From a virus (taxonomy: Duplodnaviria > Caudoviricetes), in IMG/VR virus record IMGVR_UViG_2895778652_000001, positions 28,986 to 92,985 of that record: DNA of 64,000 nucleotides; one strand, given 5' to 3'. The position numbers and the translations under genes were made by a program. Below, in pieces: positions 4,441 to 49,571 of this stretch. Every line of letters starts with the position of its first letter. The first letter of the stretch is position 1. The notes beneath the pieces were generated by a model. The model saw nothing but the letters and a program-made list of their open reading frames with translations, ran no database searches and was not told the DNA's origin.

Positions 4441-4623
4441 GTGCAGGATGCTAGCGCGGAATGTGCGCGGGGCCACATCGGGCGGCGGGCGGATTGATGG
4501 GGGGCTGTGGGACAACGCCTCAAAGTTAGCGTGTGTGGGACGGGGCTTTCAGAGTGCAGTTTGTGGGGAATGGGGAGGCATTCCAGCAAAGACCCCACCA
4601 CAACAAAGCGTCGGAGCGGGGTC

Positions 4624-11910: not shown

Positions 11911-11911
11911 T

Positions 11912-27489: not shown

Positions 27490-28458
27490 TCACCAGTCCA
27501 GATTCACAGCCCGGTCCTGCTGCCTCGCATGATTGACGTACAGCGAACTCGTCTCCACCGAGGCGTGGCGCAGGTGGTCACGCACCTCCAGCAGATCGCG
27601 TGTCTGGCGATAGACCTCGGTGCCTGCTGTGTGGCGCAGGCCGTGAACCTCGCGCCCCACATACCGCACGCCAGTCACCTTGCACAGCTCGCGCAGGCTG
27701 TCGCTGATGCCTTTTCGGGTCTCCCAATTCAGGACGCGCGGCCCGAGCTTCGGCGTCATCTCTACCCAGCGCGAGAGTGCCACGCCGCACCTCCGCGACA
27801 CCGGCACCTCCTGACGCTTCTGCCGCTTGCCGGTCACGGTCAGGTAAGGCCGCTCCGCCGTCAGGTGTAGGTCTGCCCGCATCAAACCCGCCATCTCCCC
27901 CACCCTCAGCCCACAGTGCGCACCCAGCAACACCATGACCTTCTGTTGTGGATCCGCCTGTCTCAGTAGCAACTCAATGTCCGCCTTGCTGTAGGGCTGG
28001 CGCTTCTGCCACGCCGGAACCGGATCGGGGGCGGCCCGCACGTCCGTCAGCGGGGCCGCGTCGCTCGCTCCTGACCACCGGAGCGCTGCGAAGAGCGCCC
28101 GCGCTGCCGCCAGTCGCACCCGCACGCTGCCTGGGGCCAGCCCGGAGGCTTCCAGATGGCGGGCGTACCCGTACCCGTCATTCGGACGGGGCCGCAGCAG
28201 GCTCATTCCGCCAGGGCCAGCCCAGTTCAGGAAGGCGGACAGTCCGGCGCGGTAGCTCATCAGGGTGTTCTGGCTGACCCGCGCGCCTGCACTTCCCCTG
28301 GTGACCAGAAATGCCTCGGTCAGATCCCACAGGCCCGCCTCGTCCCGCTCGGCAGCCCAGCGCAGGGCCTCTCGCCTCAGCGCGTCGGGTTCCAGCCGGG
28401 CAAGCCGTTCCGAGCGGGCGGCAAGGTCCAGTCGGGCGGCCATCAGATCAAGAGACAT
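27490..28458 (-). CDS. Tyrosine recombinase (XerC/D-like resolvase)
   Basis: GLRVGE, GKRQK, HGLRH, LRH-ASVETSSLY catalytic residues; leaderless TAAGCT-N5-ATG. Confidence 0.93.
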   Translation of the reverse strand: MSLDLMAARLDLAARSERLARLEPDALRREALRWAAERDEAGLWDLTEAFLVTRGSAGARVSQNTLMSYRAGLSAFLNWAGPGGMSLLRPRPNDGYGYARHLEASGLAPGSVRVRLAAARALFAALRWSGASDAAPLTDVRAAPDPVPAWQKRQPYSKADIELLLRQADPQQKVMVLLGAHCGLRVGEMAGLMRADLHLTAERPYLTVTGKRQKRQEVPVSRRCGVALSRWVEMTPKLGPRVLNWETRKGISDSLRELCKVTGVRYVGREVHGLRHTAGTEVYRQTRDLLEVRDHLRHASVETSSLYVNHARQQDRAVNLDW

Positions 28459-28504: not shown

Positions 28505-28532
28505 GCAGCCGATTACATCAGTTATGTAACCC
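28505..28532. other. dif/lox-like 11-6-11 recombination site
   Basis: GCAGCCGATTA-CATCAG-TTATGTAACCC, right arm resembles the XerD arm; directly upstream of the recombinase. Confidence 0.6.
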
Positions 28533-28557: not shown

Positions 28558-29058
28558 ATGACTGAACCCACTCCACCCGACAACCGCCTCTGGTGCTGGA
28601 GCCGTCACCCCAGCGGCCCCTTCCATGGACCAGACCCCGATCAAGGCACTTCAGCACTGGACTCGCTCAGCGATCCCACCACCCCAGCCATCCCAGAGAG
28701 CGATCAGCCATGGGTATACATCGGGCGCTGTGCTCCAGGACTCGCCAGCAGCTTCCTGCCGGATCTGGACGGACTGATCGGCGACGCCCGCATCACGGCC
28801 TACGACATGCACCGGGACAGGCCGCTCAGCGCCCGCCGCCCGTCGGACTGGCTGGGCAACCTCAGTCCCGCCGAACACCAGGACCTGCTGGACCGCGTGG
28901 GCCGGGCCTTCGACGATTGGGCCTCGCAGCACCACCGGCAGCCGGAGTTCTTCCAGGTGCAGGACGTGCAGGCGCTGACCTGGGCTGAAGCAGACGCGGT
29001 GGCCCGGGACTATGCGAAAGAGCTGCTCGCGGTCATGGCCAGCGGGGCAAGCCAGTAA
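28558..29058 (+). CDS. Hypothetical phage protein
   Basis: GAGG SD; 166 aa. Confidence 0.6.
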   Translation: MTEPTPPDNRLWCWSRHPSGPFHGPDPDQGTSALDSLSDPTTPAIPESDQPWVYIGRCAPGLASSFLPDLDGLIGDARITAYDMHRDRPLSARRPSDWLGNLSPAEHQDLLDRVGRAFDDWASQHHRQPEFFQVQDVQALTWAEADAVARDYAKELLAVMASGASQ

Positions 29059-29141
29059 GGACGGCGGAGGCCAACAAGCCACCGCAATAGAAAAGGCCCC
29101 AGGGGTGAGATCCCAGGGGCCGCCTACTTGGAGGACTTTCA

Positions 29142-29951
29142 ATGCAAAGCATACAGGAACGGATCACCCAGATTAAAAGCCAGATCGAGGGCGAACGGCA
29201 GTTTGACGAGAATGGTCAGGAGTTCTGGAGCGCACGCGGCCTCGCCCCCATCCTCGGGTACCGGAACTGGGAGCAGATTCCGGGCTTGATCGAACGCGCG
29301 AGCGCAGCCGCAGAAAACGCGGGTGCAAGCGCCCAGAACCATTTTCGACCCGCCTCGAAAATGGTCGCCATCGGCTCCAAGAGCGCCCGCGATCTGCTCG
29401 ACTTCCGAATGAGCCGGTATGGCTGTTACCTCTTCGCCATGAACGGCGATCCGCGCAAGCCGGAGATCAGTTGCGCCCAGTCTTACTTCGTCGTCAAGAC
29501 CCACCAGATGGAGACGGTGGAACGCCAGGCCCTGGAGGATCAGCAGGCCCGCGCGCTTCCCGCCGCCGCCCCCACTCTACCCGCGCCTGTCGGCATGGAT
29601 TTTCTGCAACAGTTCGCCGGGAACGTGCTGGTGGCCATTCAGCAACAAGCCCACACCACCAAAGAGGAGGTCAAGGCGGAGATCCGCACTGAGATCACTC
29701 AGACGCTGGGCGAGTGGCCCATCAGTGGCAGTCAGCCCCGCGAGATTCATAGCCGCGTCGGCAAGCTCGCCAAGCTCATGGGTGGGCAACGCGCCCACTT
29801 CAGTGATGCCTGGAGGCGTCTGAAGGACCGCTATGAAGTCATCGGGTACCGGGACCTGACTGTAGGCCAGTTCGATGACGCCGTGAAGTTCCTGGATCTT
29901 CAAATCGCCTCCTATCAGACGGACGGCGGACTCTTCAGGGGTGAGTTGTGA
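29142..29951 (+). CDS. DinD/BRO-N-like antirepressor protein
   Basis: EFWSARGLAPILGY..W, SRYGCYLFAMNGDPRKPEI..AQSYF; C-terminal WRRLKDRY..YRDL domain. Confidence 0.85.
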   Translation: MQSIQERITQIKSQIEGERQFDENGQEFWSARGLAPILGYRNWEQIPGLIERASAAAENAGASAQNHFRPASKMVAIGSKSARDLLDFRMSRYGCYLFAMNGDPRKPEISCAQSYFVVKTHQMETVERQALEDQQARALPAAAPTLPAPVGMDFLQQFAGNVLVAIQQQAHTTKEEVKAEIRTEITQTLGEWPISGSQPREIHSRVGKLAKLMGGQRAHFSDAWRRLKDRYEVIGYRDLTVGQFDDAVKFLDLQIASYQTDGGLFRGEL

Positions 29952-30589
29952 ATCCGAAGGAGCGTCTGCGCCGCTTAGGCAGCTTGCTCAAAGCTGGGCG
30001 GGCACAACAGGCCCTGCCACCCTACGAGAAGCTTTACGACGTCATGGTGCGAGACATCCTCGCCAGAGCGCTGGAGTACGGTTATCCACTGGAAATCCCA
30101 GGAGAGGACTATCTGGACCTCTACCTCGGCCACTCAGAACATCTGGGGGCATACAAGATCGGGATCGGTAAGGATGCTCTGAACCGAGCCAAGTCAATCA
30201 AAAGCGTGAATGCCGCACACGGTCATGGCGACGACTTCAGATTGATCAGGTTTGTACGCGGCCCAAATCGACTGGTCAGGGCCGCCGAAAAGCGGATCAA
30301 GGTGCGCTTTGCTCACTTGGTGGTTATGGGACGCGAATGGTTCTCGGATATCGAGAGCGATTTTCTAACTGTCTGCGCTGAAGAACAGCGTCAGCTTGCT
30401 GAGGACCGACAAACCTATCTGCTGAATCACGGTCCTATGGAGGACTTGAACCGCACGCGCAGGCTCTTTGAGATTTTCGGCCCGATGGATGCGGCAGCCC
30501 GCGTGACCCATCTGGGGGCGCGAGTCAAGCAATGGGACGACGTCTTCGCCGAGATGGACGAGTGTTGCAGACAGCAGGTGTCAGCGTGA
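29948..30589 (+). CDS. T5orf172/GIY-YIG-like domain protein
   Basis: YKIGIG..NRAKSI...AEKRIK..F....GREWF. Confidence 0.7.
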   Translation: MNPKERLRRLGSLLKAGRAQQALPPYEKLYDVMVRDILARALEYGYPLEIPGEDYLDLYLGHSEHLGAYKIGIGKDALNRAKSIKSVNAAHGHGDDFRLIRFVRGPNRLVRAAEKRIKVRFAHLVVMGREWFSDIESDFLTVCAEEQRQLAEDRQTYLLNHGPMEDLNRTRRLFEIFGPMDAAARVTHLGARVKQWDDVFAEMDECCRQQVSA

Positions 30590-30951
30590 ATGCCCACCTC
30601 CCCACCCTCCTGGCCGCCGTCAGCCTGGGCCTCAGCGGACTGAACGGCGGGCCTCCCCTGCCGCCCCCACTGGACCGTCCCAATCTGCTGCGCCTGCGCG
30701 ACGTGCTGGAGACGGCCAGCATCCTCCCGGAAACGCCCCTGATCCTGACGCCCAGCGATCACGAGGCCCTGCTGGTCTGCGTGCTGACCACCGACGCCTA
30801 CCTGGACAGTGGGCGCACCATTGACGGCCCACCGGACCTCCTGCGCGCCCTGGAGGAAGAGCAGCGGCAGGGGGCACGCGAGGCCCTGATGAATGAACTG
30901 GATGTCTGGAAGACCCTGAAATGCTACGGGACCGCCCATGCCCAGCTCTGA
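30586..30951 (+). CDS. Hypothetical phage protein
   Basis: Coupled ORF. Confidence 0.5.
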   Translation: MNAHLPTLLAAVSLGLSGLNGGPPLPPPLDRPNLLRLRDVLETASILPETPLILTPSDHEALLVCVLTTDAYLDSGRTIDGPPDLLRALEEEQRQGAREALMNELDVWKTLKCYGTAHAQL

Positions 30952-31474
30952 CCCCGGCCAGCTCGCCCTGACCCTCTCCTCCCTCTTCACCGCCAGCCGT
31001 ACGGACGGACGCCAGCGGGCGCACACGCTGGGGCATGGCTTACAGCTCACCGTCGGGACAGCAGACGGCGATTTCGTGGCTTTGAGCCGCAAGGCAGGCG
31101 AGCCGGACATGCTGGAGGCCGCAGTGGTGGCCGAGAAGGCAGGCTGGATCAGCTACTCCACAGACTGGCAGGACATCGCCGGATCGCGCTACCTGGTGAT
31201 CCGCCCCGACTCGCCCACCGAAGACCCACCGGATGAAGGCGACACCGATCCACCCTCCCCCGAGATCGTCGCCCTGCTGACGGACCCACAAGCCCCCTGG
31301 CGACACCGCACCTTCACTGCCCAGGCCCATGAGGCCAGGGACGACGCGGTGCGCCGGATGTCGCGGGCGGAGCTGCACGAGGAGATGGCGTGGCTCCGCA
31401 CGAAATGGGGGCCGCAGCTCCGGGCATGGCAGCAGGGGCGGCTGCGGGAGGTCTTGGCAGGACCAGCACCGTGA
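30938..31474 (+). CDS. Hypothetical phage protein
   Basis: Coupled ORF, 178 aa. Confidence 0.55.
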   Translation: MPSSDPGQLALTLSSLFTASRTDGRQRAHTLGHGLQLTVGTADGDFVALSRKAGEPDMLEAAVVAEKAGWISYSTDWQDIAGSRYLVIRPDSPTEDPPDEGDTDPPSPEIVALLTDPQAPWRHRTFTAQAHEARDDAVRRMSRAELHEEMAWLRTKWGPQLRAWQQGRLREVLAGPAP

Positions 31475-31670: not shown

Positions 31671-33200
31671 ATGGGGTTCGGTCAACCGAGACCGAATGGC
31701 CCCGAGAGAAGGGCCAGGAGCGTTAGGAGTTCCACCTTGAATTCAGCCGAGTTTTTACGCTGGGAAAGAGACAGCCGCGACACCCTCGATTTCAAAAAAG
31801 TTTACGTCGATATGACAGGCGATCTCGCCGCTGGCCTGCTGTTGAGTCAGATCGTGTACTGGCATCTCCCGAACAGGGAAGGGAACGTCAAGCTGCGCGT
31901 CCAGAAGGACGGCCACCTGTGGATCGCCAAGCAATGGACGCAGTGGTGGGCCGAGGTGCGCCTGACCGAGAAGCAGGCCATCCGTGCAGGCGAGATTCTG
32001 GCCAGCAAGGGCATCGTCATCAAACAGGTCTACAAATTCGCCGGGGACCGCACCACGCACCTGCGTCTGGACTGGGACGTGTTCCTGACTCTCTGGAACG
32101 AGACCTCAAAGAAGTCTGAGGAGGAGCGCAATGCCGAGCCGGGTACCCGGACCAAACGCCCCGATCTGACCCGTCGCCCAAAGGCTAAGGACGGAGAAGC
32201 CAAACCTCGGTCAAAGGCGAAAGCGGAAGCGGGTGAGGGGGATTTGCAAAACGCCGAAAGGGAGTTTTCCAAAACGCCGAATGGGAGTTTTGCAAAACAC
32301 CCAAAGGGGGCGACCGAAAACGCCGAAACGGGGTTACCTATAACAGAGAACACCACAAAGACTTTTCCAGAGACTTTACAGAGAGGTGGTGAATACAACG
32401 TTACTGGTAACGCACCCGCGCCCGAGGGTCCAGAGGCGCAGGTAAGCCAGATCAACAACGCACCGATCACCACCACAATCGCTTCGCGCCCAGAAGATGA
32501 AGGCGAGGCAGACAGCCCATCCGCAAGCGTGGCCGTGCTGCCGCCTGACGGCGGGGACGCTGACGCGTCCATCACAGACGACGAACTGAGCTTCCTATTT
32601 GGAGATCAGGGTCAGGCGAACGAAAAATCGGCAACGATGACTGCTCCTGAAAATGTTCCGCCCGCCGCGCCGCCTGTCGTGGTTGCGCCTGTCCCGGCCT
32701 CTGACGAGCCGCATGACCCGGAGGAAACCCGCGCCCTGCTGGTCCCAGCTCTGGGTGGCCAGAAGAAGCTCAACGACCTGATGGACGAAACCCCGCCGGG
32801 CCTGCGCTATGGGCAGCGGCGGGGCTGGATCACCCAGATCAACCCCGAGCGGGCCGTCGAGGTGATCGCCGAGGCCCGCAAGACCGCCGGTTCGGACAAC
32901 CCCTGGACGTACATCATCCGGGCGCTGGACAAGGAAGTCGGGGGTCAGATCAAGGGTGGGAAAGGTGGCACCATGACTGCCGTGACCCCGATGCCCGGGG
33001 CGTACCTGACCCCGGAGGAACAGGCCACCCGCGAAGCCGCCCTGCCTCCGGTGGCCGAGGGAGAAACCTGGTACGGCAGACGCTCTGGCAAGGCTTACCA
33101 GATTGCGGAAGTCAGCAGCCGCAGCGCCTTCGTCGAGGGCCTGGGCGAATACCAGTTCCAGAAATTCCACAGCGAATTCACCAACGAGAAGCGCGGATGA
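31671..33200 (+). CDS. Phage/plasmid replication initiator (wHTH N-terminus)
   Basis: YVDMTGDLAAGLLLSQIVYW, WIAK..WWAEVRL..LASKGIV; internal iterons followed by PITENTT. Confidence 0.85.
   Translation: MGFGQPRPNGPERRARSVRSSTLNSAEFLRWERDSRDTLDFKKVYVDMTGDLAAGLLLSQIVYWHLPNREGNVKLRVQKDGHLWIAKQWTQWWAEVRLTEKQAIRAGEILASKGIVIKQVYKFAGDRTTHLRLDWDVFLTLWNETSKKSEEERNAEPGTRTKRPDLTRRPKAKDGEAKPRSKAKAEAGEGDLQNAEREFSKTPNGSFAKHPKGATENAETGLPITENTTKTFPETLQRGGEYNVTGNAPAPEGPEAQVSQINNAPITTTIASRPEDEGEADSPSASVAVLPPDGGDADASITDDELSFLFGDQGQANEKSATMTAPENVPPAAPPVVVAPVPASDEPHDPEETRALLVPALGGQKKLNDLMDETPPGLRYGQRRGWITQINPERAVEVIAEARKTAGSDNPWTYIIRALDKEVGGQIKGGKGGTMTAVTPMPGAYLTPEEQATREAALPPVAEGETWYGRRSGKAYQIAEVSSRSAFVEGLGEYQFQKFHSEFTNEKRG
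32243..32334 (+). repeat. Four 23-bp-period iterons (core AAAACGCCGAA): probable origin
   Basis: Cores at 32248, 32271, 32294 (AAAACACCCAA) and 32317. Confidence 0.8.
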
Positions 33201-33304
33201 ACCGCCAGGAATTTGACGCCCAACTGCGGGCCTCCCCCGACGCGGCTTCCACTGACCTGCTGGTGGCTGGCCTGTTGACCCCGCCCAAAAGGAGCCTCTG
33301 GTGA
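33197..33304 (+). CDS. 35-aa small ORF coupled at both ends
   Basis: ATGA overlap with rep stop, GTGA overlap with next start. Confidence 0.45.
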   Translation: MNRQEFDAQLRASPDAASTDLLVAGLLTPPKRSLW

Positions 33305-33729
33305 CCGTCCCCACCCGCCCCAGTCCCCACCCGTACACCCGCATGCTCTCCGGCCCGGACCTGGATCACGCCTGGACGGTTACCAATGGCATGATTGCCA
33401 TCCTCGGCGAACACGAGACCCTGACCTTCCCCGTGGGGGCCACCTGGCCGGGCCTGGACGCCCTGCCGTCCGACTGGCTCGACGAACTGCGCCCCGCTGA
33501 GACTGTGTCCGTCTCGGGCAGCCTGACGCGCAAAGCACTGCCCAGCGAACTGGAGTCCGGGCTGGCGCTGGTGCATGCCCAGATGCTGCGCACCGGGTCG
33601 CTGGCGCTGCGGCTGACCCGGCTGGACCGCTTGACCTCGGGCACGCTGAACCAGTCCACCCAGGCGGCGCTGGTGGGCGCGCGGCGCGAGTCGGTCACGA
33701 AAGTCCGCACGGAGATGGGGCAGGCGTGA
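33301..33729 (+). CDS. Crp/Fnr-like HTH protein
   Basis: C-terminal QAALVGARRESVTKV Crp-type recognition helix. Confidence 0.6.
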   Translation: MTVPTRPSPHPYTRMLSGPDLDHAWTVTNGMIAILGEHETLTFPVGATWPGLDALPSDWLDELRPAETVSVSGSLTRKALPSELESGLALVHAQMLRTGSLALRLTRLDRLTSGTLNQSTQAALVGARRESVTKVRTEMGQA

Positions 33730-34670
33730 CCCTTCCCGTCCACCGCGAGATCCCGGACGGCCTGAACCACAAGACCGGTCTGAAGCGGCTGGGCCTGTCC
33801 CCCACGGGGGACGTTTTGGCCCTGTACGAGTACCGCACCCGGAAAGGGTACGAGCGCTGCAACCTGTACGCCGTGGCGGCAGCAGCCCCGATAGACCGCG
33901 CGGGCGAGGCCCAGGCCAGGAAGACCCGCAAGCTGGCCCGCGACGCCCGCCGCCTGGAACTCCAGGCCCACTTCGCCGAGGAGGTGGCCACCCTGGAAGC
34001 CGAAGCCCTGTCAGCAGCACAGGCCCATTGGCGCAAGGGGCTGAAGAAACTCCAGCGCTGGGCCGCCGCGCCGAACATGCTGATCCTCGACACGGAAACC
34101 ACTGGCCTGGCCGGGCAGATCATCGAGATCGCGGTGGTCCGGCTGGACGGCACGCCGCTGGTGAACACCCTCGTGCGCCCCACGGTGGCCATCGAGGAGG
34201 GCGCGCACCGCGTTCACGGGTTGACCGAGGCGGACCTGCGTGACGCGCCGTCATGGCCGGAGGTGCTGGCGCTGCTCAGCCCGGTCATGCAGGGCCATTG
34301 GTGCGTCGCATTCAGTGCCGACTTTGACCGGCGCGCCTGCGCCACCAGCAATGCCGCACACGGCCTGAGCAATCCCCTGACCGACGCGCAGTTCTGGCGC
34401 TGCGCCATGAACGCCTACGCCCCGATCGGCTGGCACTGGAGCGACTACCACGGCGAGTGGCGCTGGACCTCCCTTCGCAACGCCTGTCTCCAGCAGGATG
34501 TCCCTCCCGAGGCCGAGACCCACCGCGCCCTCGGCGGCGCACAGGCCCTGGCCGCGTTGATGACCCGGCTGAGCAGCGCGCCGCCTGAACTGCCCACGAC
34601 ACTGCCGGACGGCATGACCGTGACCGAGGAGGATGTGGGCTGGTCCCCGGAAGAACACCCGGACTGGTAA
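33726..34670 (+). CDS. DEDDh 3'-5' exonuclease (DnaQ-like)
   Basis: LDTETTG, VHGLT, ADFD, HRALG(G)A. Confidence 0.85.
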   Translation: MTLPVHREIPDGLNHKTGLKRLGLSPTGDVLALYEYRTRKGYERCNLYAVAAAAPIDRAGEAQARKTRKLARDARRLELQAHFAEEVATLEAEALSAAQAHWRKGLKKLQRWAAAPNMLILDTETTGLAGQIIEIAVVRLDGTPLVNTLVRPTVAIEEGAHRVHGLTEADLRDAPSWPEVLALLSPVMQGHWCVAFSADFDRRACATSNAAHGLSNPLTDAQFWRCAMNAYAPIGWHWSDYHGEWRWTSLRNACLQQDVPPEAETHRALGGAQALAALMTRLSSAPPELPTTLPDGMTVTEEDVGWSPEEHPDW

Positions 34671-34927
34671 ACGGCCATCTGGCGGAATTCTTCGTGCCCG
34701 TTACCAGGCGTTCAATCCACGGCATGGCAACCCACCAGACCGCCCCCGTCCTCCGCCTCCCCACCGCCCTGCCCGTCGGCTCCTGGGTGTTCCACGCGGG
34801 CCGTGACCGCCGCGTCCTGAGCGTGCGGTACTCGCCCAGCCGGGATGACTACCAGCACGTCCTGAGCTAGTCCGTCCCTCTCCCCCGCCCTGGCCTCCCG
34901 GCTGGGGCGCGTCCTTTGGAGGCCCAC

Positions 34928-35254
34928 ATGTTCACCCGCATCATCAACCGCTTCCGACTCCGGCGAATCCCGGCAGAGACCCGCGTGCTGCATGCCCTGC
35001 TCACCGGCCACCAGTACGCCCTCCCCCTCTCCCAGGAATACGCAGTCAACATCGGCAGCCTGTACGCTCACCTGATCCGTCTGGAACGTGCGGGCCTGAT
35101 CTGGAGCGAGTTCGAGACCGGCCCTGCGCCCCGCCGCCGCCGATACGTCCTGACCGCCGAGGGCCGCGCATGGGTGGAGCAGGATGAGAACCGCCCCCGC
35201 CTGAATGATCTGCTGGTGTCCGTACAGATCAGCACTGAGCCGCGCGGCACATGA
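34928..35254 (+). CDS. PadR-like winged-helix regulator
   Basis: GSLYAHLIRLERAGLI...RRRYVLTAEG. Confidence 0.8.
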   Translation: MFTRIINRFRLRRIPAETRVLHALLTGHQYALPLSQEYAVNIGSLYAHLIRLERAGLIWSEFETGPAPRRRRYVLTAEGRAWVEQDENRPRLNDLLVSVQISTEPRGT

Positions 35255-35643
35255 CCCTCGCCCAGCGGCTGCGCGAGCTGCGGCAGGCGCGTGGCCTGCG
35301 TCTACGGGATGTCGGAGACGTTACCGGACACACCGTGCCGTACCTGAGCGATCTCGAACGGGGCCGCACGCCGCGCGGCCTGGACAGCCTGCGCGCCCTT
35401 GCCCACGTCTACGGCCTGAGCGTCTCCGAGCTGCTCACGGGCGTGGACTGGGCCGGACAGCTCACCGGCGCGGGCCGCCCGCTGGGGCTGCAAGCCCTGC
35501 TGGATGACCCGGTGTTCGGCCCGCAGGTCACGCCCGAGTGGACCGAACTGCTGGCCCGCATTGAGTACCGGGGACGGCGTCCGCGCGGTGTCGCCGAGTA
35601 CCTGATCATCTTCCTGCACCTGCGCCGGGTGCTGGGCGTGTAA
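35251..35643 (+). CDS. ddrO: DdrO-like XRE repressor (phage-borne paralog)
   Basis: RLRELRQARGLRLRDV...VPYLSDLERGRT and C-terminal GLQALLDDP.FGPQVTPEW..LLARIEYRGRRPR..IFLHLRRVL match Deinococcus DdrO over the full length (from memory). Confidence 0.85.
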   Translation: MTLAQRLRELRQARGLRLRDVGDVTGHTVPYLSDLERGRTPRGLDSLRALAHVYGLSVSELLTGVDWAGQLTGAGRPLGLQALLDDPVFGPQVTPEWTELLARIEYRGRRPRGVAEYLIIFLHLRRVLGV

Positions 35644-35662
35644 ACCACGCAAAGGTGTCGCT

Positions 35663-35947
35663 ATGGACCACCGCCCGCCCTACCGCGATGTCCTCTCAGC
35701 CTGTGACGATGCCGAGCAGGCCCGCAGCATCGCCCTCATCACCCTGTACACCGATCTGGATCTGGAGCGCGTCCTGCGAGGCCCCCGCAAAGGCCAGGAC
35801 TTCGGAGACGCCCTGGACGCGGAGCTGCGCGGCATGGCCGAGTGTTATGGCCAGGTCTCTGTGCGCTGCTCGGTGGTCCACCCGTGGTGGAACCTGTTCC
35901 GCCCCGTGCAGCGGCTGATGCTGATTCCGCCCGACGTGACCCTGTGA
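35663..35947 (+). CDS. Hypothetical protein
   Basis: ORF coupled to the next gene. Confidence 0.45.
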   Translation: MDHRPPYRDVLSACDDAEQARSIALITLYTDLDLERVLRGPRKGQDFGDALDAELRGMAECYGQVSVRCSVVHPWWNLFRPVQRLMLIPPDVTL

Positions 35948-36588
35948 CCGTCCAGGCCCCGCCCCCCACTGGAGTCCGCCTCATCGATCACGCGGACCGT
36001 CTCAAAGCCCACCTGCGTGCCCGCCATGCCAGCAACGCCCCCGCCGAGGAGATCAAGCTGCTGCTCGGCCTCTGGGAGACCCTGATGGACCTGCTCAGCA
36101 ACAGCCTGCACGAGGAGGTGCCCGGAAAGTTCCGCATGTCCTACCCCCGCAAGCGCGCCGAGCCTGCGCCGCAGCGGCCCGTGTCGTTCAGAAGCACGCT
36201 GCATGACGTCCTGCTGGTCTGCCTGGACCAACCACTCGGGGTCCGGCAGATCGCCTTCCGGTATGAGCAGCACTGGGACCGGCACATCGCAGACGATCAA
36301 CTGCGGACATCGCTGCACCGCCTTTGTAAACACGGCTTTCTGGAACGGGCTGCGGTGGGCGAGTACTGCCTCACTGGCCTCGGCAGGCACCGACTCGACG
36401 AACTCGAAGTGCCGCCTGTCCCCTCGGCGGCTGGCCCGGCGGCTGACCTGCTGCGCGCCCTGCTGGACAAGACCTATCAGCCGCAGTTGGGTGAGCATCA
36501 CGCCACCTTCTCCGCTGAAGCCCTGGAGCGTGCCCTGGACATCCTGGAAGGGACGCTCCCGCCCATTCCCGACTGGAGAAGCCCATGA
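35944..36588 (+). CDS. Winged-helix-containing protein
   Basis: LRTSLHRLCKHGFLER...YCLTGLG. Confidence 0.55.
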   Translation: MTVQAPPPTGVRLIDHADRLKAHLRARHASNAPAEEIKLLLGLWETLMDLLSNSLHEEVPGKFRMSYPRKRAEPAPQRPVSFRSTLHDVLLVCLDQPLGVRQIAFRYEQHWDRHIADDQLRTSLHRLCKHGFLERAAVGEYCLTGLGRHRLDELEVPPVPSAAGPAADLLRALLDKTYQPQLGEHHATFSAEALERALDILEGTLPPIPDWRSP

Positions 36589-37160
36589 AGAAGACCCCCA
36601 GCCTGTTTCAGCGCAACTATCACGGCCAGCGTGAACTCACCAATGACGTCGTTCCCGGCAGCGAATGGGTGCTGGCCGGGGAAGGCGTGGCCACCCGGAA
36701 ATACGACGGGACGTGCTGCATGGTCCAGGCAGGCAAACTGTTTAAGCGCTACGACGCCAAACACGGCAGAACCCCGCCCGCCGACTTCATTCCCGCCCAG
36801 CCTGCGGCAGACGAGACCACCGGTCACTGGCCCGGCTGGGTGCCCGTGCTGGACACCGATCCGGCCAGCCGATGGCACCGCGAGGCGTGGCGCACCTGCC
36901 CCGGCCTATTGGACGGCACCTACGAGCTGATCGGGCCGAAGGTGCAGGGTGGCAAAGAGACTGATCTTCACGGCGACCAGCATGTCCTGATCCAGCACGG
37001 CGCTCATCCCCTGCCGGACGCGCCACGCGACTTTGAGGGCCTGCGGGCCTACCTTGCCGCGCATCCCGACTGGGAGGGCCTGGTCTGGCATCACCCGGAT
37101 GGGCGCAGGGTCAAGGTGACGCGTAAGGGGTTTGTGGATGCGGGCGGTCCAGTGCCATGA
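36585..37160 (+). CDS. RNA ligase-like nucleotidyltransferase (DUF5565-type)
   Basis: ATRKYDGTCC (KxDG), GHWPGWVP, GTYELIGPKVQG, EGLVWH. Confidence 0.75.
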   Translation: MKKTPSLFQRNYHGQRELTNDVVPGSEWVLAGEGVATRKYDGTCCMVQAGKLFKRYDAKHGRTPPADFIPAQPAADETTGHWPGWVPVLDTDPASRWHREAWRTCPGLLDGTYELIGPKVQGGKETDLHGDQHVLIQHGAHPLPDAPRDFEGLRAYLAAHPDWEGLVWHHPDGRRVKVTRKGFVDAGGPVP

Positions 37161-37930
37161 CGCCCAGGCCATCTCGCAGACCCCTGACGAACCCGGCCAT
37201 CATCCTTCGCCTGCGCCGGGGCATGACGGGCCGTGAGATCGCGCGAGCGATGGACGTCAACAGCCGGACTATCGAGTACCGCATTGCCAAGCGTGGCCTG
37301 GCCCCCGAGAAATCCGGGCTGATCCGCCTGAGCCTGCTGGCCATCGAGGTGGGCGTGACCCGGCAGGCGCTGCGGTACCGGGCCAGCAAGGGTGACTTCA
37401 AGGTGACGCCCTGGGGCCACTGCCCCTGCGTGAAACCCGCCGAGGCCCGCAAGGTCCGGGCCATGTATGCCCATCCAAAGCAGGCGGATTACGCGGGGTG
37501 GCTGCCTTCCCAGGCGGCAGCGGACGCCATCGGAGCGTCGCAGGCCCGGCTGTTCCGGCTCACCACGAAACACCCGGACAAACTGGCGGGCATCCGCTGG
37601 GTGCGGGCGCAGGGACAGGGCGGATTCGCCTTGCTGTTCTGCCCCGCCGATCTGCCTGAACTCAACCGCCGCTTTGGCCGCCGCGCCCTGCCCCGCCGCT
37701 ACGCCGGACTGCACACTGCGCCGCAGTTCACGGACCTGATCGGGGTGTCGGACAGCCGGGTGTTCAAGTGGGTCAAGGCCGGCGCGCCCCACCGAGAGGA
37801 CCTGTACGGGCGCTACTGGTTTGACTTGTATGCCGTCCGGGTGTGGCTGGCCTCCGGCGTGATTCGCCCCCGTGACCTGATGGCCGTGCTGGCCCGGATG
37901 GACGCCGCCCTGCCTGCGAGGGCCGCGTGA
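37157..37930 (+). CDS. Multi-HTH DNA-binding protein (possible late regulator)
   Basis: Several tandem HTH-like segments (GMTGREIARAMDVNSRTIEYRI etc.). Confidence 0.6.
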   Translation: MTPRPSRRPLTNPAIILRLRRGMTGREIARAMDVNSRTIEYRIAKRGLAPEKSGLIRLSLLAIEVGVTRQALRYRASKGDFKVTPWGHCPCVKPAEARKVRAMYAHPKQADYAGWLPSQAAADAIGASQARLFRLTTKHPDKLAGIRWVRAQGQGGFALLFCPADLPELNRRFGRRALPRRYAGLHTAPQFTDLIGVSDSRVFKWVKAGAPHREDLYGRYWFDLYAVRVWLASGVIRPRDLMAVLARMDAALPARAA

Positions 37931-38103
37931 CGCTTGACACCCGCCCCATCTGTCCGCATTGCCAGTGCCGCATTCCCTGGCGTCAGGTCTGTGGCTGTGC
38001 TGCTGCCCGCGCTGCCCGCCTGAAGAAGAAAGCCGAGCGCGAACGGCTGGCCGAGCTGCGCCGCATTGCCCCGAATCAAGTGCCCTGAACCGGAGGAACA
38101 CCC

Positions 38104-43836: not shown

Positions 43837-44328
43837 TTGCCCGAATCCAAGAAGAAGACCGCCGGGAAGCCGGTGCCCAAGCGGAAGGTCAAGCCTCCCC
43901 GCAGGAGTTATACGGACGAGGAACGCGCCGTCATCCTCGCCCTGCTGGCGGCCAACGGGCACAACCTCAGCCGCACCGAACGCGAGACAGGTGTAGCGAG
44001 ATCGACACTGATGCGGTGGGCAGAAAACCCACCCGACGCTACAGGTGGCGCATCAACAATCGCCGCCCTTAAAACCGAGATCCAGGAATCCTACCTGGCC
44101 AAGGCCAAGCGCGCCCGAGAGGTGCTGCTCGACCGGATGATCAAGGTGGCTGCTGATGAGCGGGACCTGTTCAAGATTTCCGGCGCATTCAAGATCGTGT
44201 CTGACGCCACGGGCGAGGAGGAGGTCAACCATGCTCTCGCCACTCGAATTGGCCAGACTCAAACCCAGGCAGCGCCGAGCATGGAAACTGCTCGAACTGC
44301 TGGAAGCCCAGACCCCGCCCTCAATTGA
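43837..44328 (+). CDS. Terminase small subunit (HTH)
   Basis: YTDEER..NLSRTERETGVARSTLMRW; directly upstream of terL. Confidence 0.75.
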   Translation: MPESKKKTAGKPVPKRKVKPPRRSYTDEERAVILALLAANGHNLSRTERETGVARSTLMRWAENPPDATGGASTIAALKTEIQESYLAKAKRAREVLLDRMIKVAADERDLFKISGAFKIVSDATGEEEVNHALATRIGQTQTQAAPSMETARTAGSPDPALN

Positions 44329-45880
44329 GCGGCCCCTGGGTGACGGCCTGCCCGCCCCTGGAGAGCCGCTGCCCTGGCTTCAAGCGCTGTTCCCCCGCAC
44401 GTACACCCAGCCGCTGGCCGAGTACCATACCGAGTTCTGGGAGCGCGTCTGGCGGATGAAGCCCAACCAGAGCGCCACCGAGTTCTACGTGTGGCCGCGC
44501 GGCTTCTCCAAGACCACCAACGCCGAACGCGCCGTGATCCGGCTGGCGGCGGCAGGCTTCCGCTACATCCTCTATGTCAAGGAAACGCAGGACCAGGCCG
44601 ATGACGCCGTGCAGAACATCGGCGCAGTCCTCGAATCGCCAGAAGTCGAGCGCTACTATCCCTTGCTCTCCCAGCGCAGCGTCAACCGCTTCGGCAACAG
44701 CAAGGGCTGGCGGCGTGACCGTATGCGGACTGCTTCCGGGGTGGTGGTGGACGCCGCCGGACTGGACGTCAGCGTGCGCGGCCTGCTGCTGGAAGGCGCG
44801 CGGCCCGACGTGATCATCCTCGACGATCTGGACGCCAAAGAAGACACCATGCGGACCACCGAGAAGAAGATCCGCACGATCACCTCCAGCATCATTCCAG
44901 CCGGTGCGCCCAACCGCGTGATCCTCGGCCTCCAGAACATCATCAACCCGCACGGCGTCTTCACCCGCCTCGCGGACCTCTGCCCGGACCACCCCGCCGA
45001 CTTCCTGATGGACCGCTTCGTGTCCGGCCCCTGGCCCGCCGTGCGCGGTCTGGAATTTGCGCAGGCAGGCTCGAACGAACACGGCAGACCGATCTACCGG
45101 ATCACGGCAGGGGAGAGCACCTGGCCCCAGGCGCGGCCTCTGGCCATGCTGGAAGCGGAACTCAACCAGATGGGGCCGACGCAGTTCATCGAGGAAAAGC
45201 AGAACGAGGTGGGCGCGCTGGAGGGCAGCCTCTACGCCAACTTCAGCCTGCAAAGCCTGCTGATCGACGAGCCGCCTCTGGAAGACTTCGAGGACATCAT
45301 CGTGGTCTGTGATCCCGCCGTGACCGCCACGGACAAGAGCGACAGCAACGGCATCCGCGTGGGAGGCCGCCTGCCCAATCGGCTGATCGTGGGCCTGTAC
45401 TCCTGGGAAGGGCGCGACACCGTGGACGGCATGCTCACCCGCGCGCTGGTCAAGGCCGTGGAATACGGAGCCAGCCGCGTGGCCCTGGAAAGCAACCAGG
45501 GCGGCGACATCTGGATCACGGCCTACGACGCCACCTGGAACCATCTGGTCCAGTCCGACGATTACCCCAGCATCACGCTGCAAACCCGCAAGCCCCGGCT
45601 GGAGCAGGTCAAGGCCAGCACGGCCACCGGGGGCAAGCGGGAGCGCTGGCAGGTCACCCTCGGCGCACGCGAGCGCGGGGAGTTCAAGGAAGTGCGCGGC
45701 ACCCACGGGGTGCTGTTCTCCGCCCTGGAACGCCTGCCCGAATTCAAACCCTTCGACATCGCGGACGCGGACAGTTGGCTTGAACGCATCCTGTCCCAGC
45801 CAGCCGCTGCCTCTCAGGGCACCGTCGTCAACGCCGTGACCACCCTCAACACCCTCAGCCGCCTGGCACGAAGGAGGTGA
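44231..45880 (+). CDS. Terminase large subunit
   Basis: PRGFSKT Walker A, RPDVIILDD Walker B, CDPA nuclease motif, D-x-x-D near the C-terminus. Confidence 0.9.
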   Translation: MLSPLELARLKPRQRRAWKLLELLEAQTPPSIERPLGDGLPAPGEPLPWLQALFPRTYTQPLAEYHTEFWERVWRMKPNQSATEFYVWPRGFSKTTNAERAVIRLAAAGFRYILYVKETQDQADDAVQNIGAVLESPEVERYYPLLSQRSVNRFGNSKGWRRDRMRTASGVVVDAAGLDVSVRGLLLEGARPDVIILDDLDAKEDTMRTTEKKIRTITSSIIPAGAPNRVILGLQNIINPHGVFTRLADLCPDHPADFLMDRFVSGPWPAVRGLEFAQAGSNEHGRPIYRITAGESTWPQARPLAMLEAELNQMGPTQFIEEKQNEVGALEGSLYANFSLQSLLIDEPPLEDFEDIIVVCDPAVTATDKSDSNGIRVGGRLPNRLIVGLYSWEGRDTVDGMLTRALVKAVEYGASRVALESNQGGDIWITAYDATWNHLVQSDDYPSITLQTRKPRLEQVKASTATGGKRERWQVTLGARERGEFKEVRGTHGVLFSALERLPEFKPFDIADADSWLERILSQPAAASQGTVVNAVTTLNTLSRLARRR

Positions 45881-45895
45881 TCCACCATCGGACGC

Positions 45896-47383
45896 ATGAA
45901 TGACCTCTGGGCGGCCCTGAACACGCCGCTCACCCTCGGCCCCCGCGCCTCGCCCCCACCGCCCACCCAGGGACCCAACGCCGCTGCCGCTGCCCTCCGG
46001 GGCGCACGCAACAGCGGGCTGGGCCGCCACTCCTCCCCCGGACTGGAAGCGGGCTTCGGCTCCACCCTGGTCCGCCTGGAAGGCACCTTCCCCGGCTACC
46101 CGGCAGACTCCCGCCGCCGCGTGATCCGCCTGATGCGCTGGCTCACCCAGCGCGACGAGGATATGAACGGCAGCCTCAGAGACCAGATCGCCATCGCCAA
46201 TCCCGGCCACTCCCTTGAGTTTGTGGGCGGGAAGCGGGCCGTGCAGGCCGCCCAGCAGGAAATCCAGGCGTTCGCCGAACGGGTCTTTCCCGAGGGCGGC
46301 GGGCTGGACGGCCTGAACAACAACCAGGTGGGGGAGATCGTCCGCACCGGGGCCACCAGCCTGGAGTGGTACGCGCTGGCCTCCCGCCGGGGCGTGGAGA
46401 ACGTCGCCGTGGTTCCGGCAGAAGACATCTTCATCCGCCGCACCGAGTCCGGCCTGCTCTACGAGCAGCAGGCCCTGAGCGCGGAACCGGTGGAACTGCC
46501 GGGCCTCACCTACCGCTACCTGCCGATCCTGACCGACGGCGCGGACCCGTACGGCATCCCGCTGTTTATCGCGGCGCTGGAGAGTGCCGAGCGCAAGGTG
46601 CGGCTGACCGAGAGCGTGGACCGGGTGGTGGACATGATGCGCGTCCTCGCGTTCGTCTCCGCCACCTTCCCGGAGCCGACGCCCGAGCAGTTGGGGCTGA
46701 ACTCCCGGATGGATCCGGCCTTCGAGACCCTGACCGCCGCGTACTACGAGCAGGCCGCCGCGCTGGTGTACGACAACGCGCCGCGTGGCCTGTTCGTGGG
46801 GCCGACGGGCAGCGAGGTCAAGGTCACCAACCTGACCCAGTCGCTGGCCGGTCTCCCAGACCTGATGCTGGAGAACAACCGCCGCCTGTGGACGAGCACC
46901 CGCACCCTGCCCTTCCTGCGCGGTCACCTCGACGGCGCAACCGAAGCGCTGGCGAGGGTGGCCTACCCGATGGTGGAAGCCGAGGCCGCCAACATCCAGA
47001 TGGTCCTGGCCCGGCAGCTCGAACACGGCCTGAACCTGCACCTGCGCCTCAAGGGCATTCCCGCCCAGGTGTGGGTGCGCTTCGGTTCGGCAGAGAGCGC
47101 ATTCGCCCTGTCCCAGGCCCAGACCGAGTACACCCGCATGCAGACCGATCAACTCGGCAAGCAGGTGTTCGGCGACGGCTGGTGGAGCAAGGCCGCCCAG
47201 CGCTGGGACATCGCCGAGGGGGATGCCAAGCAGGCCCCGGAATGGTGGCAGGGCACGGTGCCCGCCCCCCCGAACCTGCCCCTGCTGAACGGCGACACCG
47301 CCGCCCGAAGCGCCCTGACCTATGACCGGCAGGCGCGGCGCTACCGCGTCAGCCTGCCCATCACCGACATCCGCACCGCCTAG
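45896..47383 (+). CDS. Portal protein
   Basis: Position after terL, about 495 aa, DPYGIP motif. Confidence 0.8.
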   Translation: MNDLWAALNTPLTLGPRASPPPPTQGPNAAAAALRGARNSGLGRHSSPGLEAGFGSTLVRLEGTFPGYPADSRRRVIRLMRWLTQRDEDMNGSLRDQIAIANPGHSLEFVGGKRAVQAAQQEIQAFAERVFPEGGGLDGLNNNQVGEIVRTGATSLEWYALASRRGVENVAVVPAEDIFIRRTESGLLYEQQALSAEPVELPGLTYRYLPILTDGADPYGIPLFIAALESAERKVRLTESVDRVVDMMRVLAFVSATFPEPTPEQLGLNSRMDPAFETLTAAYYEQAAALVYDNAPRGLFVGPTGSEVKVTNLTQSLAGLPDLMLENNRRLWTSTRTLPFLRGHLDGATEALARVAYPMVEAEAANIQMVLARQLEHGLNLHLRLKGIPAQVWVRFGSAESAFALSQAQTEYTRMQTDQLGKQVFGDGWWSKAAQRWDIAEGDAKQAPEWWQGTVPAPPNLPLLNGDTAARSALTYDRQARRYRVSLPITDIRTA

Positions 47384-47391
47384 GAGGCTAC

Positions 47392-49098
47392 ATGGACCCC
47401 CAGAACCCCACCCGTTCCCCCACCCGCCTCTCCGGCCTGACCTCCCTGCTCGGCAGTGGCGCGTGGGCCATCCGCGAGGCCAGCCACCGCCAGCTCGTGT
47501 CCGATTACAACACCTACCTCAAGGCTGGTCCCGCCGGTCACGAACAGATCGAGAAACTGCGCGCGGCCCGCGACACCCGCGCCGAGGTGCTGGACAGCGC
47601 CCAGGCCCAGGCCCCTGGCGTGGCGGTGCTGGCCCTGTACGGCACGATCCTGCCGCGCGGGAACATGATGGTGGAACTGTGCGGCGCGGCCAGCCCGCAT
47701 TCGTTCGCTGAGGATGTCCAGCGGGCCGCCAATGACCCGAACGTGACGTCCATCATCCTGGACATCGATTCCGGGGGCGGCGCGGTCAGCGGCATCGACG
47801 TGGCGGCGGAAGCGGTGCGCCGGGCCTCGCAGATCAAGCCCACCACCGCCGTCTGCAACACCACGGCCTGTTCTGCCGCCTACTGGATTGCCGCGCAGGC
47901 CCGTGAAGTGGTCATCACCCCGGCAGGGGAGATGGGCAGCATCGGCGTGATCGGCACCCATGTGGACGAGAGCAAGCTGATGGACGAGGCCGGGCTGGTG
48001 GTCACCTACGTCCGCAGCACCCCCGGCAAGGCGCTGGGGCAGCCCACCGAGGCCATGAGCGGCGACATCCTGACCGACTGGCAATCGCAGGTGGACCGCA
48101 TCCACGCCCTGTTCATCGCGGACGTGGCGCTGGGCCGCAAGCGCTCTGAGGCAGAAGTGGCTGAGCGCTGGGCCACCGGCGCGGTCTGGTTTGGTCAGGA
48201 GGCCGTGACGGCTGGACTGGCGGACCGCGTGGGCACCCTGAGCAGCGTGGTGGCCGAACACCTCCAGCAGGCCAGTGATCAGCAGGCCCGGCAGGCGAGA
48301 AGCCAGCGCCGGGCGGCGGACCCCACGTATGGCCGGCTGAGTGCCGAGGCAGACCGCCTGGACACCCTGCTGGCCGCGCCCCTGCTGCTGCCGAAGGACG
48401 CGCAGACGGAGGTGGTGGCCGCCAGTCAACGCCTCTGGGAAGCGGTGGGCACCGTCCACGCCTCCCACGACTACCTCGATCCCGACTACGCCGCCCTGTG
48501 CGTCCGTGCCACGGCCTTGCAGGAAGCGGCCCACGCCCTCGCCACCCCCACGCCCCCGGAGGCTCCTGATATGAAGACTGTCACCCTGACCGCGCACGAC
48601 GGCACGGTCCACGAGATCGACGCCACCCCTGAAGCCCTTCAGGCATTCCTGAGTGGGCAGCTCACCGCTCAAACCGCTCTGGCGCAGACCGCGCAGGCTG
48701 GCGCTGTTGACGCTGCATTGGCAGAAGCCAACGCACAAGTCGCCACGGTGATGACTGATCTGGGTGCGGCCTTCGGCCTCACTGCCGAACAGGCCATCAA
48801 CGGCACGGGCGACGCCTGGATCGCTGCCGCCGCCCGCGCTGGAGCCGTGACCGATTACCGCGCGGCTCTGCTCTCCGAACTCGAAACGCTGGCCGTGACG
48901 GTGGACGGGAACACGGGCGCGGCGGCGCAGATCGTCAAGCTGGCCGGTCAGGCCAGTCTCACCGACTTGCAAACCACCGTGACCGCCTACCGTGACCGCC
49001 GCGACACCCTGGTCCCCACCGGACGCCAGAGCGCCGTGCCCGAAACCAGCACGCCGGAGGTGAACAAACCCAAGCGCAGCGCCTTCAACCGCAACTGA
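47392..49098 (+). CDS. S49 (SppA-like) prohead protease fused to scaffold
   Basis: LDIDSGGG, ACSAAYWIA, GSIGV, GLADRVG; Ala-rich helical C-terminus. Confidence 0.9.
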   Translation: MDPQNPTRSPTRLSGLTSLLGSGAWAIREASHRQLVSDYNTYLKAGPAGHEQIEKLRAARDTRAEVLDSAQAQAPGVAVLALYGTILPRGNMMVELCGAASPHSFAEDVQRAANDPNVTSIILDIDSGGGAVSGIDVAAEAVRRASQIKPTTAVCNTTACSAAYWIAAQAREVVITPAGEMGSIGVIGTHVDESKLMDEAGLVVTYVRSTPGKALGQPTEAMSGDILTDWQSQVDRIHALFIADVALGRKRSEAEVAERWATGAVWFGQEAVTAGLADRVGTLSSVVAEHLQQASDQQARQARSQRRAADPTYGRLSAEADRLDTLLAAPLLLPKDAQTEVVAASQRLWEAVGTVHASHDYLDPDYAALCVRATALQEAAHALATPTPPEAPDMKTVTLTAHDGTVHEIDATPEALQAFLSGQLTAQTALAQTAQAGAVDAALAEANAQVATVMTDLGAAFGLTAEQAINGTGDAWIAAAARAGAVTDYRAALLSELETLAVTVDGNTGAAAQIVKLAGQASLTDLQTTVTAYRDRRDTLVPTGRQSAVPETSTPEVNKPKRSAFNRN

Positions 49099-49152
49099 GC
49101 CTGCCGTCGCCCTTCCCTCCCCGCCCTTTCGTTCCTATAGGAGGAACTTTTT

Positions 49153-49500
49153 ATGCGCGTGAACGAACTCGTGTTCAATCAGCAGGAAAGCATCGTCACC
49201 ATGAACATCGCGCCCGGCACCGTTGTCGGTGACGCCGTGGCCTTCACCGCCCCCGCCACCGTGGGGCGCGGCGCAGACGGCGACAAGCTCGCAGGCAAGG
49301 TGCTGAAGATCGAATCTGACGGCCTGGGCACCGTGTCCCTGCCCGGATCGGGCTTCACCGACATTCCTGCCGTGGGCACCCTGGCCACCGGCTTCCAGCT
49401 TCTCGTGGTGGACGGCGCAGGCAAGGCCAAAGTCGCGGCTGGCGGCAAGGAATACCTGGTCAATGCCGTGGTGGCTGGAACCGCCAACATTCAGCTCTAA
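49153..49500 (+). CDS. Head decoration/cement protein
   Basis: Small beta-rich ORF between protease and capsid genes. Confidence 0.65.
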   Translation: MRVNELVFNQQESIVTMNIAPGTVVGDAVAFTAPATVGRGADGDKLAGKVLKIESDGLGTVSLPGSGFTDIPAVGTLATGFQLLVVDGAGKAKVAAGGKEYLVNAVVAGTANIQL

Positions 49501-49571
49501 GTTCAGCCCTTCAACCCACCGCCCCGCGCCCCCTGACCGGGGCGCATTTTTGGCCCCCAGGAGGGACACCC

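Follow-up and report, generated by a model that had tools for sequence, protein, structure and literature searches.

A strongly diverged DdrO paralogue with an altered IrrE cleavage site is encoded by a phage-plasmid-like element

In Deinococcus, resistance to radiation and desiccation has as its master switch the metalloprotease IrrE and its substrate, the repressor DdrO, and the two serve as a model for the pairs of an M78 protease and an XRE repressor which control prophages, integrative and conjugative elements (ICEs) and anti-phage operons. Here, a gene for a DdrO paralogue is described which is located on a viral contig, C161 (92,985 nt; IMG/VR virus record IMGVR_UViG_2895778652_000001). 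The window that was analysed comprises the last 64 kb of this contig (64,000 nt), and positions given without a prefix refer to it. The ddrO paralogue was identified at positions 35251..35643 on the plus strand, where an earlier note on this DNA had placed it; it starts with ATG and codes for 130 amino acids, and its GC content at third codon positions (GC3) of 0.85 is similar to that of the neighbouring genes. The start codon overlaps the stop codon of a gene for a PadR-family regulator (34916..35254, +) in the sequence ATGA, which suggests translational coupling of the two genes.

The encoded protein consists of an XRE helix-turn-helix (HTH) domain (residues 1-66, with VPYLSDLERGRT as residues 29-40), a linker, and a DdrO-type three-helix dimerisation domain (residues ~76-128). 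A Pfam scan reported the XRE HTH only (HTH_31, E 6.3e-13; HTH_3, E 1.8e-10), and no family of NCBIfam was found over its cut-off. A phmmer search of the PDB aligned D. deserti DdrOC (6rmq/6rnx) with residues 1-128 (E 6e-39 and 8e-39) and D. geothermalis DdrO (6jq1) with residues 1-129 (E 1.4e-38). The C-terminal domain of DdrO alone (6ro6) was matched to residues 76-128 (E 1.6e-14), and 6rnz to the N-terminal domain (E 2.5e-17; Foldseek TMt 0.96, rmsd 0.8). An AlphaFold2 model, built from an alignment of 15 rows and reaching a pLDDT of 83.9, showed the eight helices of DdrO, with the C-terminal helices at residues 78-85, 95-103 and 114-128. Its top Foldseek matches were DdrO chains; the C-terminal domain superimposed on 6ro6 with a TMt of 0.80-0.86 and an rmsd of about 2, while the whole-chain TM of ~0.52 was low because the linker is flexible. 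The similarity is thus not confined to the generic XRE HTH, and by the full-length alignment, the 6ro6 match and the predicted fold it covers both domains, as the earlier note had claimed. The phage protein is a genuine full-length member of the DdrO family.

The counterpart of the IrrE cleavage loop, located between helices alpha7 and alpha8, reads RIEYRGRRP in the phage protein (residues 103-111; 35557..35583, +). The passages available of PMC6868357 place the cleavage site of DdrO at L106|R107 in the loop IEL/RGKRPRD, which aligns with IEY/RGRRPRG of the phage protein. Tyr106 (codon TAC, 35566-35568, +) thereby aligns with L106, the P1 residue, and P1' is retained as Arg107 (35569-35571, +), so that the reported exchange of Leu for Tyr at P1 is correct. 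The canonical ddrO of the host is located on contig C75; it retains the site RIELRGKRP and is 52% identical to the phage copy.

Within the DdrO family the phage copy is strongly diverged. A DdrO match was obtained in 106 of 111 genomes of the genus, 12 of which contain at least two copies, and none of these proteins is more than 59% identical to the phage copy. DdrO paralogues were identified on five Deinococcus plasmids. Among 5.8 billion clustered proteins, the phage protein is the single member of its own cluster, and identity falls to 62% with the next best match; P0003, P0004 and P0007, its three closest relatives, share 60-62% identity with it. Alignment and tree, proposed in the earlier note as a check, placed the protein inside the family as an extremely diverged member: its terminal branch of 1.27 substitutions per site is the longest in the tree of 130 rows (median 0.039), which makes it the fastest-evolving DdrO observed, and it lies in a 14-row clade made up mostly of metagenomic sequences (SH-aLRT 93), in which no sister to it is resolved.

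This divergence is unevenly distributed over the protein. The phage copy keeps 24 of the 26 columns which are invariant in the other 120 homologues and 27 of the 37 columns with 90-99% conservation (12 highly conserved positions lost), and in the more variable columns it keeps 11 of 37 and 7 of 30. The retention of core columns together with the loss of variable ones points to purifying selection on the core and not to decay. The only invariant columns lost are S28T and P42R, both in the HTH, which carries further changes at conserved positions, N41P, S43G and T46S. A second changed surface is formed by the cleavage loop and alpha8, with L106Y, K114V, W117Y, Y118L and E119I, and also Y121F. 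As judged from the alignment, the phage copy is remodelled at the DNA-reading surface and at the cleavage and dimerisation surface, while the residues for folding, for DNA binding and, with one exception, for IrrE recognition are kept.

The residues in question have been investigated in several Deinococcus species. For D. geothermalis DdrO it was shown that R11, R17, K19, Y31, D34 and E36 are needed for binding to the radiation/desiccation response motif (RDRM) (PMC6765133; converted from D. geothermalis numbering with an offset of 11, the residue identities fitting at 6/6 positions). The phage copy keeps R11, R17, Y31, D34 and E36 and has K19R. According to excerpts of PMC12828697, DdrO's N-terminal domain contributes to IrrE binding, and R8, R17, K19, R37 and R39 lie in the predicted IrrE interface and have been implicated in docking by mutation; R8, R17, R37 and R39 are kept, with Arg at position 19. 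In the portions consulted of PMC4374696, the D. radiodurans variants E107A, L108A, G110A and R112A are uncleavable, corresponding to E105, L106, G108 and R110 in D. deserti numbering, while R109A, K111A and K111E are still cut and R109E is not. The phage loop contains E105, R107, G108, R110 and P111, and its K109R falls at the position where, by the same portions, the exchange of Lys for Ala or Glu leaves the protein cleavable. Further, the excerpted PMC6868357 names D96-R107, R103-E105 and E119-H123 as pairs in the dimer interface and Y121A as non-functional. Here, R103, E105, R107 and H123 are kept, and D96E and E119I are changed.

The meaning of Tyr at P1 was judged from the variation at this position. 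Among 121 close sequences, P1 is Leu in 112, His in 7, Phe in 1 and Tyr in 1, the phage protein being the only one with Tyr. His was found in seven metagenome clusters, and not in the 12 best matches from 301 genomes of the phylum. In 80 metagenomic loci of the DdrO family with 37-57% identity, P1 is Leu in 70, Trp in 4, Val in 2, Phe in 2, Met in 1 and Tyr in 1. Tyr at P1 is unique within the 121 close homologues and not within the wider family. An IrrE-like gene is present in 50 of the 80 loci, and for 8 of the 10 genes without Leu it starts within ~200 nt downstream. In the locus with Tyr at P1 (L157, 3057-4317), the adjoining IrrE-like gene carries the motif HEGTH. Tyr, Trp, Met or Val at P1, each in a gene directly upstream of an IrrE-like M78 gene, was observed in L142, L146, L147, L151, L149, L145 and L182 as well as in L157. 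From these comparisons, a bulky hydrophobic or aromatic P1 residue is part of the working repertoire of the family with cognate proteases. Since P1 varies beside IrrE-like genes in these loci, Tyr at P1 is weak evidence of resistance to cleavage. In the passages available from the cited IrrE/DdrO literature, natural variation at P1 is not apparently discussed.

The gene was correctly described as phage-encoded in the earlier note, with the nuance that its carrier is not an integrated prophage. The last 4,621 nt of C161 (59380..64000, +), which contain the 5' part of the tape measure gene, repeat the first 4,621 nt with one mismatch; C161 is therefore circular or terminally redundant, and 88,364 bp (88.4 kb) of it are unique sequence. 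The contig contains phage and plasmid genes only and no host flanks. Genes for the virion are combined on one replicon with those for ParA, ParB and a replication initiator, a gene content which implies a phage-plasmid-like element.

A protease that could act on the DdrO paralogue was not identified on C161. In a search of the whole genome, M78 peptidases (PF06114) were found only on contig C2, which codes for the single IrrE of the host (285 amino acids, HEIGH motif), and on contig C96, and S24 peptidases (PF00717) only on C148, C20 and C143. IrrE is present in 41 of the 41 genus genomes searched. The HTH_3 genes of C161 are two only, the ddrO paralogue and a gene for a Cro-like protein of 71 amino acids, and the searches for M78, S24 and HTH_3 genes revealed no other damage-sensing module on the contig. 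In an element without a protease, the repressor would depend on the IrrE of the host. The M78 gene on C96 (18355-18660, -) is adjacent to an XRE gene (19007-19213, -) in an arrangement like that of ImmR/ImmA, on a contig with a lower GC content (60.1%); the pair is unrelated to the C-terminal domain of DdrO. C20:739-3589 and C143:16434-19284 gave the same results (equal E-values, same site) for an S24-peptidase gene and for an RDRM site with a downstream gene for 167 amino acids, a likeness which is probably due to a repeated segment or an assembly duplicate.

For the identification of candidate DNA targets, a simple RDRM consensus, TTMYGNNNNNNNCRKAA, was not enriched in the window and was replaced by a position weight matrix (PWM) derived from 13 sites of the host genome, several of which precede ddrB, ddrA, ddrC, gyrA, gyrB and cinA (genes identified by eye). 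By the RDRM sites upstream of recognisable genes, gyrA, gyrB and the cinA operon belong to the radiation/desiccation response (RDR) regulon of the host. Two sites on C161 rank 21st and 26th genome-wide by this PWM, training sites included, with 17.9 and 16.7 bits. The site TTACGTTATGAGCATGA (L047:18256-18272; C161:28256) lies on the start codon of the Cro-like XRE gene (C161:28263-28478), and TTACGATGTTTACGGAA (L047:18752-18768; C161:28752) within the 5'-terminal part of an HTH_17 gene (C161:28696-29406). The two sites are 0.5 kb apart, 0.2-0.7 kb to the left of the window, and two sites of at least 16.7 bits on C161 occurred in 0 of 200 first-order Markov simulations. The region of the Cro-like and HTH_17 genes looks like the regulatory switch of the element. 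An open reading frame (ORF) of unknown function for 135 amino acids diverges from the Cro-like gene on the opposite strand.

Within the window, the perfect palindrome TTACATCAGTTATGTAA (TTACAT-N5-ATGTAA, 28513..28529, unstranded) has the 6-5-6 geometry of the RDRM with a symmetric change at G5/C13, a departure as expected of an operator which has co-evolved with an altered HTH. It is located in a divergent gap of 99 bp between the gene for a tyrosine recombinase with XerC/D-like architecture (27490..28458, -), which reads away from it, and a rightward block that comprises the anti-repressor, replication, padR and ddrO genes. It is the only exact copy in the genome; perfect palindromes of this type occur ~5 times per contig. 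From its sequence and position, the palindrome is a candidate operator at the head of the block and, like the two PWM sites, is taken as a lead only. It is also the RDRM-shaped site nearest to the ddrO paralogue, 6.7 kb upstream of it.

The earlier note had offered two functions for the protein, a cleavage-resistant mimic or heterodimer partner that damps the host damage response, and a phage damage sensor wired to IrrE. The second option fits better, by the retained loop residues and basic N-terminal residues implicated in docking, the absence of an own protease, the variation at P1 and the RDRM-like sites, and the option of a mimic is weakened by the loss of S28 and P42 together with the changed N41, S43 and T46, all of which lie in the HTH. 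The phage DdrO probably taps into, or disturbs, the damage alarm of its radiation-resistant, Deinococcus-type host. As a tentative proposal, plausible though not quite probable, it is suggested that the protein is the element's own repressor and that host IrrE inactivates it, whereby damage would lead to induction of the element. It would be a neofunctionalised DdrO-family repressor belonging to the 88-kb phage-plasmid, dimerising by its C-terminal three-helix domain as host DdrO does and binding a 17-bp RDRM-type palindrome by its XRE HTH. Because the HTH is altered, the repressor probably prefers RDRM-like operators of the element itself. The targets would be TTACAT-N5-ATGTAA at the head of the operon for anti-repressor and replication, which includes ddrO itself, and the two sites at the Cro-like and HTH_17 genes. 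After DNA damage or accumulation of single-stranded DNA (ssDNA), host IrrE would cut the alpha7-alpha8 loop, and the genes for the anti-repressor and replication would be derepressed. Induction, or runaway replication, would in this way be tied to the radiation and desiccation alarm.

Several observations weigh against this proposal. On the side of the DNA targets, the simple consensus had 0 exact matches in the window and 7 with one mismatch, where 8.85 were expected, and the enrichment of PWM sites on C161 is modest, with 2 observed where the rate in the rest of the genome predicts 0.43. No PWM site of at least 8 bits was found within 2.9 kb upstream of the ddrO paralogue (32351 to the start codon), which lies inside the replication block ~36 kb from the Cro-like regulatory region, and the palindrome could instead be a target of the recombinase. 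On the side of cleavage, P1 is Leu in all 41 other Deinococcus rows and in the 12 best matches of the phylum search. The L108A (= L106A) result in the consulted portions of PMC4374696 indicates that Leu at P1 matters for D. radiodurans IrrE. The changes K114V, W117Y and E119I beside the loop are unique or nearly so and could disturb recognition. Finally, no related phage was found in the phage and IMG/VR collections or in the genus genomes with which the conservation could be compared.

If Tyr at P1, together with K114V, W117Y and E119I, makes the protein uncleavable, it would instead be an IrrE-insensitive dominant repressor or a pseudo-substrate decoy, which shuts RDRM promoters or occupies IrrE. 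The host radiation/desiccation response, and any death or defence programme tied to loss of DdrO, would thereby remain silent during replication of the element and its formation of ssDNA. None of the other close homologues and no other Deinococcus copy examined has Tyr at P1, and the gene is located among replication genes and not at the regulatory switch, both as such a function would have it. In the portions consulted of PMC4374696, P1 variant L108A is uncleavable, and an uncleavable DdrO is dominant in vivo: the strain with the uncleavable R109E, which remains on promoters, matches a pprI knockout in sensitivity, and wild-type ddrO in trans does not rescue it; excerpts of PMC12828697 add that ssDNA activates IrrE and stimulates cleavage. 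However, bulky and aromatic P1 residues naturally coexist with adjacent IrrE-like genes, and a faithful RDRM mimic should retain its HTH, against which S28T, P42R, N41P, S43G and T46S argue. An uncleavable RDRM binder would, by the same partially consulted source, also radiosensitise the cell that carries it, and E105, G108, R110 and P111 need not have been kept for recognition, though their role may be structural. We consider it rather unlikely that such a dominant repressor or decoy explains the gene, and the more specific picture of a pseudo-substrate which docks on host IrrE, on RDRM DNA or on both, and stays uncut after Tyr106, blunting the host damage response, is equally doubtful. If it were true, the pseudo-substrate would be a viral counter-measure against a protease-repressor alarm.

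The loop may also have been kept for another reason. R103-E105 and D96-R107 are ion pairs of the dimer interface in the excerpted PMC6868357, and loop retention therefore need not reflect recognition by the protease. The protein could then be an old, fast-evolving regulator specific to the element, which tunes replication or maintenance together with the co-translated PadR and has no working link to IrrE, as would suit the very long branch without a close relative (62% identity at best among the clustered proteins), the coupling to padR and the position in the replication block of a ParAB-bearing element. Yet the interface pairs listed in the excerpts do not include G108, R110 and P111, which are invariant and kept, RDRM-like sites lie at the regulators of the element, and no other damage-sensing module was found on C161; such a regulator is thus regarded as improbable, though still worth considering. 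Given the common C-terminal fold and the retention of R103, E105, R107 and H123, a heterodimer with host DdrO might be formed, in which the HTH, changed at otherwise invariant positions, weakens RDRM binding; such a poison subunit would activate the recA, ssb, gyrase and repair genes of the host to the benefit of the element, and the host RDR regulon does include gyrA, gyrB and the cinA operon. The heavy changes in alpha8 (W117Y, Y118L, E119I and Y121F) make insulation from host DdrO more likely than a heterodimer, and this account seems quite improbable. Least of all is a decaying, non-functional passenger copy to be expected: the branch is the longest in the family and 12 highly conserved positions are lost, but the frame is intact at family length, GC3 is like that of the neighbours, 24 of 26 invariant residues and a confident predicted fold are retained, and the start overlaps the upstream stop in operon fashion.

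The proposed repressor cleaved by host IrrE resembles several known systems in part. With DdrO (DdrOC) of the Deinococcus DdrO/IrrE pair it shares the length, the two domains, the basic alpha7-alpha8 loop with E105, R107, G108, R110 and P111, and the tested DNA-binding residues. It differs from host DdrO in its 52% identity, in being phage-plasmid-borne, in Tyr at P1 and in not being the essential copy of the cell, which is the one on C75; unique changes are found at S28, N41-S43, T46, K114, W117 and E119. While ddrO and ddrOP3 are preceded by an RDRM and autoregulated, the phage gene has no RDRM in front. A second ddrO on an extrachromosomal replicon, like that of C161, is known as DdrOP3 from D. 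deserti plasmid P3 and from the paralogues of D. ficus, D. taeanensis and D. gobiensis. DdrOP3 was reported to be RDRM-preceded, radiation-induced and cleaved by IrrE (PMC5552922), and excerpts of PMC6868357 state that it is 84% identical to DdrOC and can replace DdrO. By these sources, the second only in excerpts, it has Leu at P1, whereas the phage copy is far more diverged and its carrier is virus-like. All other paralogues examined keep Leu at P1 and K114/W117. Genes in common with the element were sought around other DdrO paralogues, on the D. ficus plasmid and in ten loci, and none was shared except for one recombinase-like match.

ImmR/ImmA of ICEBs1, Rir/Crh of TP-J34 and CapH/CapP resemble the proposed phage case in that an XRE repressor of a mobile element is inactivated after damage by an M78 protease at the loop between the last two helices. 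The P1 residue of ImmR is also aromatic, since ImmA cuts after F95 (F95|M96) according to the excerpted PMC6868357. Unlike C161, these systems carry their own protease in an adjacent gene, and a DdrO-specific C-terminal domain is a feature of the phage protein. Coupling of phage induction to the damage regulator of the host, the logic of the proposal, is the same as in lambdoid phages and in those with LexA-repressed anti-repressors. Lambdoid CI mimics LexA to exploit RecA, and Tum of coliphage 186 and the Gifsy anti-repressors are repressed by LexA. The difference lies in a metalloprotease acting in trans instead of self-cleavage stimulated by RecA, with no S24 domain on C161. If the proposal is true, a virus-like element with the substrate but not the protease of the pair would be the IrrE/DdrO counterpart of CI copying LexA.

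Plasmid-borne DdrO paralogues were already known, and a phage-borne copy with a changed P1 is new within the literature and collections searched. The phage DdrO had no match among 50,697 phage records. Of two scans of IMG/VR by sequence pattern, one returned relatives by the HTH only, in 3 of 15 candidate stretches, and the other gave 0 of 82; a full-text literature search found no report of a phage-borne full-length DdrO, nor of one with a changed P1. The gene would represent a natural experiment on IrrE recognition, with Tyr at P1 and an altered alpha8, on the evolution of DdrO operator specificity, and on damage sensing by temperate elements where the main damage response is independent of SOS.

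The remaining genes of C161 are arranged in several blocks. The partition genes parB (2786-3805, -) and parA (3685-4515, -) form the block 2786..4515, and the virion module (44156..50684, +) consists of genes for the large terminase, portal, head maturation protease and major head protein. The tape measure gene, cut at the window end, has 2,407 codons and is the first ORF of C161, the PHROG matches coinciding. The rightward early block starts at 28558..31474 (+) with an ORF for 166 amino acids, the anti-repressor-like gene (29142-29951) and further ORFs. It is followed by the replication module (31671..34670, +), which contains a DnaD/O-like initiator (31671-33200, +), an ORF for 142 amino acids (+) and a DnaQ/RNase T-type exonuclease (33726-34670, +), the latter immediately 5' of padR-ddrO on the same strand. 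Downstream of ddrO, on the same strand, 35663..37930 (+) contains two ORFs of unknown function, an RNA-ligase-like gene three genes 3' of ddrO (36585-37160, +; Pfam RLIG1, E 5e-10) and a gene for an HTH_23 protein (37157-37930, +). A gene for Rha is also present in the window. A scan for promoters and terminators in 27000-38500 gave counts not above those of shuffled controls.

The element has no close relative: identity of its terminase to phage records does not exceed 26.5%, and its capsid protein reaches 30-40% with genes of three Deinococcus plasmids. Related phages with the same gene slot were not found when 6.3 kb around the ddrO paralogue were compared to the genus genomes. This region matches other genus genomes gene by gene only, by the exonuclease (74%) and the RNA-ligase-like gene (65-70%), and the exonuclease relative in genome G032 adjoins parAB and not a ddrO. 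The DNA matches of the RNA-ligase-like gene are spread over ~10 other genus genomes, and a protein match of 59% is located on host contig C4. Host contig C3 encodes the C-terminal 287 amino acids of the replication initiator (9620-10480; 78% identity in protein and 86% in DNA) and, at 11375-12190, a recombinase that shares 55% identity with that at 27490-28458, so that, by sequence, this locus is assigned to another element of related type, which lacks a copy of ddrO.

Inside the element, an ORF for 478 amino acids (L047:15090-16526) is transposase-like by eye. Four DNA methyltransferase genes were identified on C161, three of which, of the C5, N6_Mtase and D12 classes, are consecutive at 11912-15652 (-), while the fourth (L047:11750-13444, +) codes for a fusion of an N6_N4 methylase with an Mrr-like nuclease domain. 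This set suggests a heavy investment in evading or imposing restriction.

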